Origin: an uncultured Gammaproteobacteria bacterium
GTDB lineage: Bacteria; Pseudomonadota; Gammaproteobacteria; Steroidobacterales; Steroidobacteraceae
Length of the DNA: 64,000 nucleotides
Reading direction: 5' to 3'
Assembly (NCBI GenBank): GCA_963731105.1
Contig: CAVSUM010000020.1
Coordinates: 2,943 to 66,942 of the forward strand
Shown here: positions 57,539 through 61,961 of the stretch, piece by piece
How positions within the stretch are numbered: the stretch's first letter is position 1
Layout: each line of letters starts with the position of its first letter
Notes under the pieces: model-generated
The model's input: the letters and a program-made list of their open reading frames with translations, nothing else
Told to the model about the DNA's origin: nothing
The model's database searches: none
Position numbers and translations under genes: made by a program

Positions 57539-58382
57539 GTGGATAAGTCCTTGAGAATCAAAGCACTCGCGTTGAGCCTGCTGGTGGCGCTGGCGCCGCT
57601 GTCCGCCGGGGCCGTGGCCAAGCGTCGAGTCGAAGTCGCAGTCCATCCCGGACCTGCGCTCCAACGCCTTCTACATCCTCGATTCCTCCGGCTCGAAGGT
57701 GCTCGCGGCACGCAACGAGCAGACCGCCGTGCCGATCGCCTCCATCACCAAGCTGATGACGGCGCTGGTCGTGCTCGAGGCCCGCCAGCGGATGGACCAG
57801 ACGATCACCATCACGCGCGACGACGTCCGCGAGACCCCGGGCAGCCGCTCACGCCTGGCGCCGGGCGCCCGGCTGAGCCGGTCCGATCTCCTGCACCTTG
57901 CGTTGATGTCCTCGGAGAATCGTGCGGCGCATGCGCTGTGTCGCGCCTACCCGGGTGGCATGCAGGCTTGCGTGCGCGCCATGAACCGCAAGGCCAAGGC
58001 ACTCGGCATGAAGTCGGCGCGGTTCGTCGAGCCGACCGGATTGTCGAGCAGCAACGTGTCGAGCCCCGTCGACCTCGCCAAGCTGGTGCGGGCGGCAGCG
58101 GCGAATCCAACGGTCCGCAGGTTCTCGACGGACCCGGACCACACCGTGAACATCAATGGGCGCGCGCTCGAATTCCGCAGCACGAACTCGCTGGTCAAGA
58201 AGCCCGACTGGCAGGTCACGGTGCAGAAGACCGGCTACAACGCCGAGGCGGGCCGCTGCCTGGTGATGCAGGCCGTCATCGACGGCCGCGACGTGGTCAT
58301 CATCCTGCTCAATTCCTGGGGCACGCTCACGCGCATCGGCGATGCGAACCGCGTCCGCCAGTGGCTGGAGTCGGGCGCCTAG
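57539..58382 (+). pseudogene. D-alanyl-D-alanine endopeptidase (PBP7/PbpG-like, S11 serine peptidase), one frame break
   Basis: GTG 57539 gives the signal peptide DKSLRIKALALSLLVALAPLSAGAVA. After a break near 57620 the protein continues in ORF 57699..58382 with PIASITKLMTALV (SxxK), SSENRAA (SxN) and KTGYN (KTG). Confidence 0.8.
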
Positions 58383-59154
58383 CGCGGAGGCGTCGGGGAC
58401 GTCGTGCATTCTGCAATCTGTTCCTCGAGCGGCGTCGTGTCCTTGGTCCCACGGCCGCAGCGTCTCGAGGTCACGCAGGTAGTTCTGCTTGAGACGTTCG
58501 AGTGCGTACCACTGGGCGGTGGCCACGGCCGCCTCGTTGCGCGCCAGGTCCAACAGCTGGCTGCGCCGCGCGCGAATGCGCTCGATGGCCCGGCCCAGAT
58601 CCGCATCGTCCTCGAAGGCCGGTGCCTCGCTACCCGGGGCGTAGCCGCGTAACAGGCTGAACCCGGGCTGCAGCTGGGCAGGCATCAGTTCGTTGATCAC
58701 GATCGGGTAGGCGCCCTGGATCCGCGCCACCTGGGCAAACAACACCCGCGGCCCTTCATACGTGCCCGCCAGGCTCAGGCCCGGGAATGAGTTCGTCGAC
58801 GAGCCGCGCATTGCCCGAGTTCTGCAGCGCCTGGTACTGGTTGTCTGCCAGCCACGGCATCGCCGCCGACGTGCTGCGGGCGAACGATTGCAGCAAGGCG
58901 GCCGGGTCTGCCACTTCCGGCGCCGGATCCTGCAGGAATCGCAGCACGACCTGCAGGCCGTCGAACTTCCGTTGCAGGTTGCGAGATCGGATGCGTTCCA
59001 CGCTGCAGAGATTGCTGCGCAGCTCGGTGGCGACGTTGGACAGGTGCTCGCCCACGACCCTGAGCTCCTCGCGATCCTGGCGCCACTGGTCCACGCCGAG
59101 CGCCAGCAGGATGCCGATCACGATGATGAGCAGTTCCGCTGCCATTCGCTTCAT
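58379..59154 (-). pseudogene. N-terminally anchored helical protein, paralog of 61188..61961 (DUF6090-like), one or two frame breaks; 3' end uncertain
   Basis: ORF 58756..59154 (MKRMAAELLIIVIGILLALGVDQWRQDRE...) continues in ORF 57849..58811 (LSLAGTYEGPRVLFAQV...LERLKQNYLRDLETL). It possibly ends in the frame of ORF 58379..58606. It starts 39 nt after the TIR gene stop. Confidence 0.5.
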
Positions 59155-59193
59155 GCGTGGCCCTCGCCGGTTCGCTCTGCGGGGGGCGCGGTG

Positions 59194-61011
59194 CTACTCG
59201 GCTGGTGCCGCAGCCGGGCGGCTTTTCATCACGCGCAGCAGGTCGACGTACGCAGGTTCGTCGCGCAGCGGTATGAGGTCCGGATCATTCTGCATCCAGC
59301 CGACGTTGGTGTATCCCGCCTCGACGGCCTGGCGCAGCGTGTCGATGGCGCGGCTCGATTCGCCGAGGCTCGCATACATGCATGCGGCGTTGTAGAGCAT
59401 GTGCGGATCGCCAGGAGTCAGCGTCAGCGCCTTGGTCCCCTCGCGAATGGCCTCCTCCCGGCGCCCGGCCCGGCCGAGCTGATTGGCGTAGATCAGCCGT
59501 GCGCGTGAATCGTCCGGGTTCTGCAGCAGGTAGTTCGGCATGATCTCGAGCAGCCGGCGATAGGCGACGTCCGCTTCCCCGGCCAGCCCAAGCCCGAGGC
59601 ACGTCTGTGCAACGTCGAGGTGTCCCGCATAGAAGCTCGGCTTGATCTCGGCGACCCGGCGGAACAGTTCCAGCGCCTGCTCGAGCTTGCCCTCGGTGAA
59701 GTAGATCCGCCCGAGCGTCCAGTGCGCGATGAAGTCGTCGGGATCGATTTCGATCGCCTTGGTGCAGGAGGCGGTGGCCTGGTTCAGCTTGCCCCAGAGG
59801 AAATACGACAGTCCCATGGCCCGGTACGCTTCGGACAGGTTGTTGTCGTACATCAGGGCCTTGAAGCTGAGCTCCTGCGCGAGCTCCCGATAGCGGTCCT
59901 CGCGCGCGATCAGCTGGTACATCTGGCCGTAGGCGCTGGAGCATCCCGCGTAGGCGGCCGCGTAACGCGAGTCGAGCTCGATGGCCTTCTCGAACAGCTG
60001 GATCGCGTATTCGACGCTGCTCTTGGTCAGGCGGTAGAGCTGGTCCTGGCCGCGGAGATAGAGGTCGTACGCCTCCGCATTGAGCGTCGGCCGCTTGGTC
60101 AGCGACAGCTTTTCCGAGAAGCTGAGCTTGAGCTTCAGCGCTTCGACGATCTGCTGGGCGACCTGCTCCTGGATGTCGAACACGTCGTCGAGCTTGCCCT
60201 TGTAGGTGTTGCCCCACAGCTGCAGGTTGGTCGCGATGTCGACCAGCTGGACCGTGACCCGCACCGAGTCCTGGAACCGGCGCACGCTGCCGCCGACGAT
60301 GTACCGCGCGCCGAGGGTCTTGCCGATCGCGTGGATGTCCTGCCCGCGCCCCTTGTGCTGCATCGAGGCCCAGCGCGAGATCAGGTTGATTTCGCTGACC
60401 AGCGACAGCCTCGCGATCAGCTCCTCGGTGAGCCCGTCGCTGAAATAGTCCGTTTCCGGATCCGGACTGATGTTGTCGAACGGCAGCACAGCCACCGGCC
60501 CACCGTCGGGAATGGCTTCGGCGCCAGGTGCCGGATGCGCAGCGCTGGCCGTGCCGGGCCGCAGGTCGATCCCAACTGCAGCAACGGGCTGCGGCGGGGC
60601 GATCTTGACGCCCAGCGCTTCCAGCGAGCGAAGGATCGCAACCAGGTTCTCGTCGGGATCGCCGTTGTAGAACTCGATGTGCTGGATGCCGGCGAGCGGG
60701 TACTTGAGTCCAAGCGGGATCGTGGTCGGTTCGAGATGAACCGGCAGGATGTGCCCCTTGCGCTCGCTCGTCAGCATCACTTCCTTCGCCACGTTGTGCG
60801 AGCTGACGGCCGACGGCGTCACCATCAGCAGCAGCACCTTGGCGCCTTCGAGGGCGCGGACGATGGACTCGCCCCACAGCGCGGCGCCGTCGATGCTGCC
60901 CTGGTCGATCCAGAGGTTGACGCCGGCGGCCCGCAGCCTGCCCGCGAGGTCGAGCACGCGGGCCTTGTCCTCGCGCGAGTAGCTCAGGAAGACGTCTGCG
61001 GATTGCGCCAC
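59194..61011 (-). CDS. TIR-domain protein with central TolB_N-like (COG5616-type) module and C-terminal TPR array
   Basis: ORF 59194..61011 (GTG start). The domains are:
- TIR: DVFLSYSREDKARVLDLAGRLRAAGVNLWIDQ...VLLLMVTPSAVSSHNVAKEVMLT.
- Middle module: VAVLPFDNISPDPETDYFSDGLTEELIARLS...GARYIVGGSVRR...VTVQLVD...LWG.
- At least seven TPR-like helical pairs.
No TM segment is present. Confidence 0.8.
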   Translation of the reverse strand: MAQSADVFLSYSREDKARVLDLAGRLRAAGVNLWIDQGSIDGAALWGESIVRALEGAKVLLLMVTPSAVSSHNVAKEVMLTSERKGHILPVHLEPTTIPLGLKYPLAGIQHIEFYNGDPDENLVAILRSLEALGVKIAPPQPVAAVGIDLRPGTASAAHPAPGAEAIPDGGPVAVLPFDNISPDPETDYFSDGLTEELIARLSLVSEINLISRWASMQHKGRGQDIHAIGKTLGARYIVGGSVRRFQDSVRVTVQLVDIATNLQLWGNTYKGKLDDVFDIQEQVAQQIVEALKLKLSFSEKLSLTKRPTLNAEAYDLYLRGQDQLYRLTKSSVEYAIQLFEKAIELDSRYAAAYAGCSSAYGQMYQLIAREDRYRELAQELSFKALMYDNNLSEAYRAMGLSYFLWGKLNQATASCTKAIEIDPDDFIAHWTLGRIYFTEGKLEQALELFRRVAEIKPSFYAGHLDVAQTCLGLGLAGEADVAYRRLLEIMPNYLLQNPDDSRARLIYANQLGRAGRREEAIREGTKALTLTPGDPHMLYNAACMYASLGESSRAIDTLRQAVEAGYTNVGWMQNDPDLIPLRDEPAYVDLLRVMKSRPAAAPAE

Positions 61012-61187
61012 TGTCGAGGCCTATTGCGTCCAGTGTCCTGTGGAGCGGGCAGGGCAGGCCGTGCAGCCATGCTGGGCGGCCAAGGCTAGCGGATCCGTGG
61101 CGAGGTAGAAGGATTCTCGGCGCACAGCCAACCTGTTGATCCAGCGGAGTTTCGATGTCCGCCTCGCTATCCGCGATGCCGCCCCGG

Positions 61188-61957
61188 TCAAGGGGCGGCT
61201 TCTGCCAGATAGGCGTCCAGCGACTGCGCCCGGTCGATCAGGTCCTGGAACATCGTCAGCTTGGAGTCGACGTCGGCAAGGCTGCGATTGAGGTCCAGCT
61301 CGATCTCAGGGATCGTAACCGCCGCAACGGCGGCGGACAGTTCGTCGGGCGACAGCTCCAGCGAGCATTGCTGCGGCAGCGTCACCACCGGGGCTCCCTG
61401 CTCGTCGGTGCCCAGTCGTTCGGTGCATTTCTTCGTCATCTGCACCTGCACCGCGTACGGCATGTGACGGCGCAGGCTTTCCCTGTAGGGCGGGATGTAC
61501 CGCAGGATGACTTCCCGGGTTTGCGCGGTGAGGTAGAAGTTCGCCAGGCGCCGCCGCATGTCGACATCGGAGATCGAGTTGATGCCCCCCACCGCTAGCA
61601 CCTCGTCGTAGGTGTTGCGCCCGAACGTGCGCGGCACAATCTGGCTGGCCTGGTACGCATCGATGAGGAACTGGGTGCCGATCTCCTCCGGGGGTCGCTC
61701 GAACGCGGCCAGCGCGTCCAGGGCGTGTGCCTTGACCCATTGGTAGTAGGCGATGCGGGCCTGCATGTCCGTGACGTTCGCCGCCAGGTCCTCGCGGATG
61801 CGAGTGATATAGGTCTGGGCCGTGTTCCGCTCCAGGCGCGCGGCATTCCAGTTGGCGACCTGGATGCCGATGAACACGCCGAAGACGACGATGACGAGCT
61901 CGATCGCGATGGCGAGCCAGTTCTGCGTCCTGAGGTTGTCACTGAGTCGGCGCAGGA

Positions 61958-61961
<4 letters not shown>
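61188..61961 (-). CDS. N-terminally anchored helical protein (DUF6090-like), paralog of 58379..59154
   Basis: ORF 61188..62315 trimmed to ATG 61961, which overlaps the maeB stop (ATGA). [39 protein letters not shown] fits the single N-terminal TM pattern I associate with DUF6090 proteins. Confidence 0.6.

Follow-up and report, generated by a model that had tools for sequence, protein, structure and literature searches.

The stretch analysed here (the window) comprises 64,000 nucleotides of contig CAVSUM010000020.1 (assembly GCA_963731105.1) from an uncultured Gammaproteobacteria bacterium of the Steroidobacteraceae, and its minus strand encodes, at 59194..61011, a 605-residue protein in which a TIR domain is fused to a TolB_N-like domain and a tetratricopeptide repeat (TPR) solenoid. 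We read it, with about as much confidence as doubt, as a soluble TIR signalling protein with a TolB_N-TPR sensor that normally stands alone, and the two DUF6090-like membrane genes that flank it in the window as strain-variable accessories, loosely associated with it. Judged by its distribution among genomes, the gene is vertically inherited, strongly constrained, multi-paralog and chromosomal in Steroidobacterales-like Gammaproteobacteria. Coordinates follow the window numbering; L-numbers denote comparison loci and P-numbers comparison proteins.

An earlier note on this DNA had described a TIR-first protein of 605 residues, and the open reading frame (ORF), which has a GTG start, was confirmed, with Pfam TIR_2 (PF13676) matching residues 7-121 at 71.8 bits against a cut-off of 28. 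This match, profile alignments, an AlphaFold2 model and Foldseek together place the TIR domain at residues 1-135 (60607..61011). The model of residues 1-145 (pLDDT 76) has the flavodoxin-like beta-alpha TIR fold, and Foldseek returned 117 PDB matches at E <= 0.001; all 50 among the matches listed are TIR domains, and they include SARM1, the SPARTA TIR-APAZ protein, Hydra TRR-2, PdTIR and AbTir (TM-score 0.6-0.77). Family profile alignments set the putative catalytic Glu77 (SHNVAKEV; codon 60781..60783, minus strand) against the glutamate of SARM1 (vhkEiv), which we take to be E642, and against those of Cat1 (cwdEl) and 7uxr (teyEl), bearing out the note's claim of a Glu at the position used by bacterial TIR NADases. 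Glu77 is invariant among orthologues and in 9/9 paralogs of a tandem array described below.

A Kyte-Doolittle scan of all 605 residues found no transmembrane (TM) segment, in agreement with the claim that no TM helix separates the TIR domain from the next module. What separates them is a Pro/Ala-rich linker, delimited by alignment and the hydropathy scan (residues 136-172; 60496..60606), the sole poorly conserved stretch of the protein, its identity being 33% among the array paralogs and 19% when they are compared with the window protein. It is followed by a TolB_N-like alpha/beta domain (residues 173-300; 60112..60495) carrying the motif VAVLPFDN...DYFSDGLTEELI. The NCBIfam TolB model TIGR02800 aligned residues 172-322 to its positions 24-178 (E 1.9e-7, far below the equivalog cut-off), and the CadC and HilA models matched residues 188-450 (E 1.3e-13) and 190-460 (E 2.4e-8), both below the equivalog cut-off; Pfam TolB_N had no match in the 605-residue protein and the Pfam LpoB match was weak. 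When residues 165-335 were modelled, the best Foldseek matches were PelC, the N-domain of TolB, GNA1162 and LpoB (probability 1.0, TMq about 0.5, 22-25% identity to TolB). The remainder of the chain, residues 301-605 and then the stop codon (59194..60111), is a TPR solenoid, recognised by Pfam TPR_1/2/8/11 and related families over about residues 390-565 and by NCBIfam TPR_END_plus (a TPR end-of-group domain) over residues 539-592, with 80 bits against a cut-off of 32. Pfam and NCBIfam found no NTPase (NB-ARC or NACHT) between the TIR domain and the repeats, and Pfam Trans_reg_C (the OmpR/ToxR winged helix) had no match, the N-terminus being a TIR domain.

The earlier note had recognised the middle region as a module of COG5616-type regulators and cyclases followed by TPRs, and this identification is supported by the NCBIfam TolB and CadC matches, the Foldseek and Pfam TPR results, and homologs in annotated adenylate/guanylate cyclases on rhizobial megaplasmids, where the module is 44-47% identical. 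These megaplasmids (e.g., NC_012586.1 and NZ_CP083351.1) carry up to 11 module matches per record, and the annotated ones are adenylate/guanylate cyclases. Relatives that share the C-terminal module bear other N-terminal parts, namely a winged helix-turn-helix (wHTH), a three-TM (3TM) anchor, a TIR domain plus TM helix or, in rhizobia, a cyclase. These comparisons place the 605-residue protein in a large family whose members combine a TolB_N-like domain and a TPR solenoid with interchangeable N-terminal output domains. In L069 (536..2734, minus strand), L063 (1357..3444, minus strand) and L161 (1498..3402, plus strand), a TM helix lies between the TIR domain and the TolB_N-TPR part, and these relatives would cross the membrane once, with the TIR domain in the cytoplasm and the sensor in the periplasm.

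Relatives of the protein number in the thousands; the top 120 among them are full-length and 72-100% identical to it, and the few of these 120 that carry a taxon name are from Steroidobacteraceae or unclassified Gammaproteobacteria metagenome-assembled genomes (MAGs). For a species-level set with one genome per GTDB species, 107 loci with a relative were found and 80 were kept (46-87% identity); across species-level MAGs the protein retains 66-87% identity. The gene is more conserved than the adjacent Peptidase_S11 gene in 12/12 loci that share the latter (e.g., 85% versus 72%), housekeeping genes surround it (GGDEF-EAL, rubrerythrin, Band_7, SDR), and the IMG/VR viral contigs scanned held no TIR-TPR gene and no match to either family scanned. 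Because of this conservation, these neighbours and the absence from viral contigs, it looks like a constrained chromosomal gene, unlike a typical defence-island gene.

Several MAGs encode two TIR-TPR paralogs (L006/L035, L008/L036 and L014/L034), about 85% and about 69% identical to the window protein. In the Ignavibacteriae MAG palsa_1295 (L074, 766..16774), nine TIR-TolB_N-TPR copies of about 590 residues are arranged head to tail, and tandem arrays were also noted in L073, L085 and the Kapaibacterium loci L077/L081. Mean pairwise identity within the L074 array is highest in the TIR domain (72%) and lowest in the C-terminal TPRs (49%), suggesting a constant output with a variable sensor, and the array resembles a diversifying receptor cluster in this respect. 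An ORF of about 655 residues (L043, 4307..6892; also L031, L035, L036, L047 and L079) lies about 3 kb upstream of the roughly 70% identical paralog in these six related loci and has a weak DUF4231 match (18.5 bits, below the cut-off); it was considered as a nucleotide-sensing effector and set aside, as unrelated genes intervene and the arrangement is confined to six closely related loci. Apart from this, L002 has at 1..155 a SIR2_2 plus TIR_2 gene for 459 residues, and a TIR-TPR homolog with 73% identity lies at a distance of about 6 kb.

In the window, the TIR-TPR gene is bracketed on its own strand by two genes for membrane proteins. The upstream one (61188..61961) is an intact ORF encoding a 257-residue bitopic protein, whose basic N-tail (MILRRL) is conserved and precedes a single TM helix; the C-terminal domain is helical. 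The family of this protein has 366 homologs, mostly unnamed and of 257 residues, in which C179 and C199 are invariant (117/117 sequences); because of these two cysteines the C-terminal domain is probably periplasmic, and the basic N-tail together with the Cys pair suggests an N-in, C-out topology. The downstream gene (58379..59154) starts, as the earlier note had it, 39 nt past the TIR-TPR stop, with an ATG at 59154. Its interval had been taken for one gene product, and here the note did not hold: the interval, 776 nt long, holds no single continuous ORF. In frame 1 a stop is reached at 58756 after 132 residues; the reading resumes in frame 2 at 58784, within a cccggg run, and shifts near 58440 to frame 3, where it ends with the TAG at 58381..58379. 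The two +1 frameshifts were placed by tblastn at 58783/58784 and near 58440, and removal of two nucleotides restores 257 residues. HMMER searches with the stitched translation recovered intact homologs, including P0241 (276 residues), which is 60% identical to the repaired protein in one stretch covering residues 1-237 of both, and an orthologue of 266 residues in L091 (85% identity). The downstream gene in the window is therefore either a pseudogene or an assembly error.

The earlier note had called the two flanking proteins paralogs and DUF6090-like, and both statements stand in part. Pairwise BLAST found no match between them, the hidden Markov model (HMM) of the upstream family matched the downstream ORF at E 1.7e-4, and HHalign joined the two families over 161 columns with 98.2% probability (E 5e-14, 17% identity), in an alignment that takes in the Y..AL..SG segment. 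The proteins are thus related, as profile comparison indicates, but as remote homologs from two separate families of about 257 residues and not as close paralogs; a recent tandem duplication is ruled out by the mere 17% identity. As to DUF6090 (PF19578), the upstream protein scores 16.2 bits and the downstream protein 17.3 (132-residue ORF) or 15.3 bits (repaired), all below the Pfam cut-off of 23.5, and neither protein has a family in NCBIfam. A distant relationship to bona fide DUF6090 members is nonetheless supported: the upstream-family HMM matches the Pfam-assigned DUF6090 genes of L169 (4761-5591, 39.2 bits) and L096 (7529-8317, 27.6 bits), the downstream-family HMM matches the L169 gene, and both window proteins match the first ~50-80 positions of the DUF6090 model, that is, the N-terminal TM helix and the next helix.

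Whether the three genes recur together was the earlier note's own test of its arrangement, and the result went against it. With HMMs of both membrane families, 0 of the 80 species-level TIR-TPR loci had a member within 10 kb, no neighbour family of any kind occurred in more than 11/82 TIR-TPR loci, and the one isolate locus (Novosphingobium, L175) also had no DUF6090-like neighbour (0/1); conservation of the trio among orthologues was rejected on these counts. Both flanks differ among strains in which the TIR-TPR protein has 95-98% identity to that of the window. The window has the upstream gene and the frameshifted downstream gene; L003, L004 and L005 have the upstream gene (its 5′ end cut off in L005) and lack the downstream one; L091 lacks the upstream gene, has a cytochrome c gene in its place and carries the intact downstream gene; and L092 lacks both. 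In L003, L004 and L005 the peptidase gene lies 3-25 bp past the TIR-TPR gene, and a segment of about 793 bp that holds the downstream gene (58380..59172, delimited by blastn comparison and junction sequences) is missing, with 22 bp in its place in L004 and L005 and a similarly short spacer in L003. A transposon-like insertion of the downstream gene was considered and rejected, as there are no direct or inverted repeats and no target-site duplication, and the 22-nt filler in L004 is different. Since none of the 80 orthologue loci has either membrane family and the flanks vary independently among strains, the three genes form no obligatory system.

Two further observations concern these strains. 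L003, whose TIR-TPR protein is 98% identical, has at 891..1561 a toxin-antitoxin pair (Gp49, HigB-like, with HI1420-downstream, HigA-like) about 6 kb upstream of the TIR-TPR gene, which shows that the region holds accessory content. In L092, a 262-residue protein is encoded at 4583..5371 (minus strand), convergent to the 95% identical TIR-TPR gene; by eye it has a winged-helix-like part followed by the membrane module ELRRRxVFRV...W..LQV that heads 3TM-TolB_N-TPR proteins, and no TolB_N-TPR part; it had no precomputed Pfam match.

The reverse search, which scanned 80 metagenome loci with the upstream family (30 of them of at least 5 kb) for the TolB_N-like module, gave a different picture. The module was present in 5/30 of the loci of at least 5 kb, one of the five being the window's own relative. 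In L096, one strand carries in overlapping succession a 604-residue 3TM-TolB_N-TPR gene, a DUF6090-like gene, a 605-residue 3TM-TolB_N-TPR gene and a further four DUF6090-like genes, and a wHTH-TolB_N-TPR gene is nearby; the related L155 has two 3TM-TolB_N-TPR-like proteins followed by seven or eight DUF6090-like genes. L169 has two DUF6090-like genes, a gene for a 707-residue 3TM-TolB_N-TPR protein and then its bona fide DUF6090 gene, a bracketed layout as in the window. A DUF6090-like gene is found at a distance of 1 kb from the TIR_2-(TM)-TolB_N-TPR protein in L161, and at 1.7 kb from a TIR-TM protein in L145, which comes from a related organism. The link between DUF6090-like and TolB_N-TPR genes looks real in lineages where both proteins would face the periplasm. 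Loci of the downstream family (L089/L090 and L173) showed no pairing with TolB_N-TPR genes. A separate array of five tandem DUF6090-like genes (242-263 residues, with 4-nt start/stop overlaps) occurs in Hyphomonas johnsonii (L088, 2751..6562), with no TolB_N-TPR or TIR gene near it.

Returning to the reading of a soluble, normally solitary TIR protein with loosely associated flanks, its output probably cleaves NAD+, by analogy with known TIR enzymes. The TPR/TolB_N module would bind a peptide, a protein or a small ligand, binding would shift the oligomeric state and bring TIR domains together, and the composite TIR site would then cleave NAD+, resulting in depletion or in an ADP-ribose-derived signal; we infer these steps (ligand binding, oligomerisation and NAD+ cleavage) from those enzymes. 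The DUF6090-like genes on both sides probably reflect a loose recurrent affinity of this superfamily for TolB_N-TPR proteins, and the flanks probably do not form a dedicated complex with the TM-less protein of the window.

Several points weigh against one part or another of this reading. At position -4 from Glu77, where SARM1, Cat1 and 7uxr have Trp, the family has an invariant Asn73, so that the W-x-x-x-E motif is absent and NADase activity is not assured. The TolB_N-like model is of low confidence (pLDDT 63), and the solved proteins of the TolB_N/PelC/LpoB fold returned by Foldseek are all envelope proteins, which makes a cytoplasmic copy unusual; HilA, whose NCBIfam match is sub-threshold here, is a cytoplasmic precedent for such a module. 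The association of DUF6090-like with TolB_N-TPR genes amounts to about three independent lineages, counted without a neutral background set, and most DUF6090-like members are solo or in pure arrays; about 30 of the 80 upstream-family loci belong to a single syntenic lineage and have the gene on its own. Finally, if the flank domains are periplasmic, contact with a cytosolic TPR solenoid would be limited to the short N-tails.

The strongest competing explanation, possible though on the unlikely side, is a pure chance neighbourhood, in which the two membrane genes have no functional relation to the TIR-TPR gene and came to lie where a variable region tolerates insertions between genes. It accounts for the missing DUF6090-like neighbours at all 80 orthologue loci and at the isolate locus, for flanks that come and go independently, and for the majority of DUF6090-like genes, which stand solo amid housekeeping genes. 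It also fits the local layout, in which the upstream gene is coupled to maeB and not to the TIR gene: as the earlier note had stated, it starts in an ATGA overlap (cgATGAtc), with the maeB TGA at 61958..61960. At its other end, an 8-bp GC-rich hairpin, GCCGCCCC-N6-GGGGCGGC (61178..61199), spans its stop codon, and a gap of 176 nt separates it from the TIR-TPR gene. The hairpin (fold -25 kcal/mol, z -2.0), which lacks a U tract, possibly marks the boundary of a transcript ahead of the TIR-TPR gene; in a consensus scan of 58200..62100 for sigma-70 promoters and terminators, no sigma-70-like promoter came up and the hairpin was not called as a terminator. Chance has more difficulty with the numbers, as no member of the DUF6090-like superfamily was found in 1.5 Mb of related loci, yet one lies on each side of the window gene, so that two independent arrivals of a rare superfamily beside one gene would be needed, and with the recurrence of the pairing in L096, L155, L169 and L161 as same-strand genes that overlap or are closely spaced. 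Because of this rarity and of the operon-like clusters elsewhere, pure chance is unlikely. The earlier note had left the choice between a sensor/effector module and chance; an obligatory three-gene system is gone from that choice, and the recurring clusters leave plain coincidence improbable as well.

A second alternative, which we consider unlikely, is that the TIR domain has no enzymatic role and serves in assembly or as an adaptor, the protein being a TPR scaffold around which a complex nucleates, in the manner of animal TIR adaptors. The replacement of the -4 Trp by the invariant Asn73 would suit such a role, as would Ala68 at position -9 from Glu77, where the usual residue is aromatic; the whole surface is very highly conserved, suggesting many protein contacts, and Foldseek also returned scaffold TIRs such as MAL, TLR2 and TRR-2. 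Against it stands Glu77, which is invariant across orthologues and all array paralogs. In addition, TM-bearing relatives keep the canonical S-x-W-V-x-x-E, among them L069 from the isolate Thioalkalivibrio sp. XN8, which suggests an enzymatic ancestry.

Less probable still is that DUF6090-like proteins are dedicated partners of TolB_N-TPR proteins. In the window lineage the receptor would have become split, with the soluble TIR-TolB_N-TPR protein recruited or regulated through the conserved cytoplasmic N-tails (MILRRL...) of the DUF6090-like proteins beside it, and envelope sensing would be coupled to NAD+ signalling in a housekeeping and not an anti-phage role. As part of this proposal, and with the same slight probability for the two together, the single-pass receptors of L161, L069 and L063 would be a bacterial counterpart of Toll-like-receptor topology.

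A three-gene anti-phage (abortive-infection) system, in which the membrane proteins sense the envelope or form pores and the TIR domain depletes NAD+ or signals, is very improbable: the aligned catalytic Glu, the domain-level matches of PADLOC TIR models, the hot-spot-like variability of the flanks with a toxin-antitoxin-like pair 6 kb off in L003, and the tandem diversifying arrays of Ignavibacteriae are offset by a PADLOC result without any system-level match (none for the upstream protein, and only an unconvincing "2TM effector" at E 0.0033 for the downstream ORF), by a TIR-TPR gene that is core-like, slower-evolving than a housekeeping penicillin-binding protein and set among housekeeping genes, by a trio that is never conserved and whose downstream member is frame-disrupted in the window, and by the absence of both scanned families from the IMG/VR viral contigs.

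The genes beyond the flanks are housekeeping enzymes. maeB, also on the minus strand (61958..64000, its 5′ end beyond the window), encodes an NADP-malic enzyme with a PTA-like domain (Pfam malic, Malic_M and PTA_PTB), and its relatives have 758-763 residues. On the plus strand, a convergent Peptidase_S11 gene (D-Ala-D-Ala carboxy/endopeptidase; 57473..58382, identified with Pfam, tblastn and sequence) meets the downstream membrane gene, the TAG stops of both overlapping inside the palindrome CTAG at 58379..58382. Its C-terminus departs from that of its relatives exactly at the variable junction, and one extra nucleotide near 57622 splits the frame of the signal peptide from that of the mature enzyme; the gene is intact in close relatives. 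Three frame breaks (at about 57622, 58440 and 58784) thus fall inside 1.2 kb, beside 4.8 kb of intact genes, which suggests that the assembly went wrong locally at a strain-variable junction or that the genes have truly decayed.

Among known systems, the TIR NADases (SARM1, AbTir, 7uxr, Cat1 and SPARTA TIR-APAZ) resemble the 605-residue protein in fold, in the position of the Glu and in the fusion of the TIR domain to a sensor or regulatory region. It differs from them by the Asn in place of the -4 Trp and has no ARM/SAM, Argonaute, CARF or STAND partner, and its gene differs by lying in no defence island, by its high conservation and by its vertical inheritance. CadC and HilA (ToxR-like) and the rhizobial class III adenylate cyclases (COG5616-type) share with it the C-terminal two-thirds (residues 172-460) and an interchangeable N-terminal output, which is a TIR domain here and not a wHTH or a cyclase; unlike CadC, the protein is without a TM helix. 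In STAND or NLR-like TIR-NTPase-TPR proteins, a P-loop NTPase occupies the place held here by the Pro/Ala linker and the TolB_N-like domain. Compared with Thoeris and other named TIR defence systems, no cognate effector or sensor is conserved beside the TIR-TPR gene and the context is neither mobile nor patchy, and the earlier note's remark that no named defence or signalling system fits agrees with the PADLOC result, which is limited to the TIR domain. Pfam DUF6090 is an uncharacterised single-TM family with which the window flanks share the N-terminal TM region at scores below the gathering threshold.

The combination of TIR and TPR has precedents in bacterial immunity, as fusions in the actinobacterial group 6 TIR-TPR proteins (PMC7075850), as the gene pair BcTir/BcTpr (bioRxiv 10.1101/2023.05.26.542521) and, for the TPR part, in the Thoeris effector ThsI (bioRxiv 10.64898/2025.12.03.692087). 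The likeness is one of TIR chemistry combined with a TPR recognition platform. Those proteins differ in having no TolB_N-like domain, in being larger or divided between two genes, and in their location in defence islands; the window protein is one chain with a TolB_N-like middle domain and no partner effector. In a thin literature search, we found no hit for "TolB-like + adenylate cyclase + TPR", COG5616 in one unrelated paper, no bacterial TIR-TM-periplasmic receptors and no mention of DUF6090. Known, then, are TIR-TPR fusions and pairs, and the TolB_N-TPR module from CadC, HilA and cyclases; no description was found of TIR joined to TolB_N-TPR, of the core-gene behaviour of this family, of its receptor-like TM relatives or of the adjacency to DUF6090-like genes.

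To our knowledge, bacterial TIR proteins have been studied almost only as fast-evolving anti-phage defence genes. The family described here keeps the catalytic Glu and yet behaves like a core gene, with several paralogs per genome, and in place of a STAND NTPase or Thoeris partner it has a TolB_N-TPR sensor module of the CadC/HilA type. If active, it would place NAD+-derived signalling in ordinary physiology, and the recurrent adjacency of DUF6090-like genes to TolB_N-TPR genes would be the first functional lead for the DUF6090 family.

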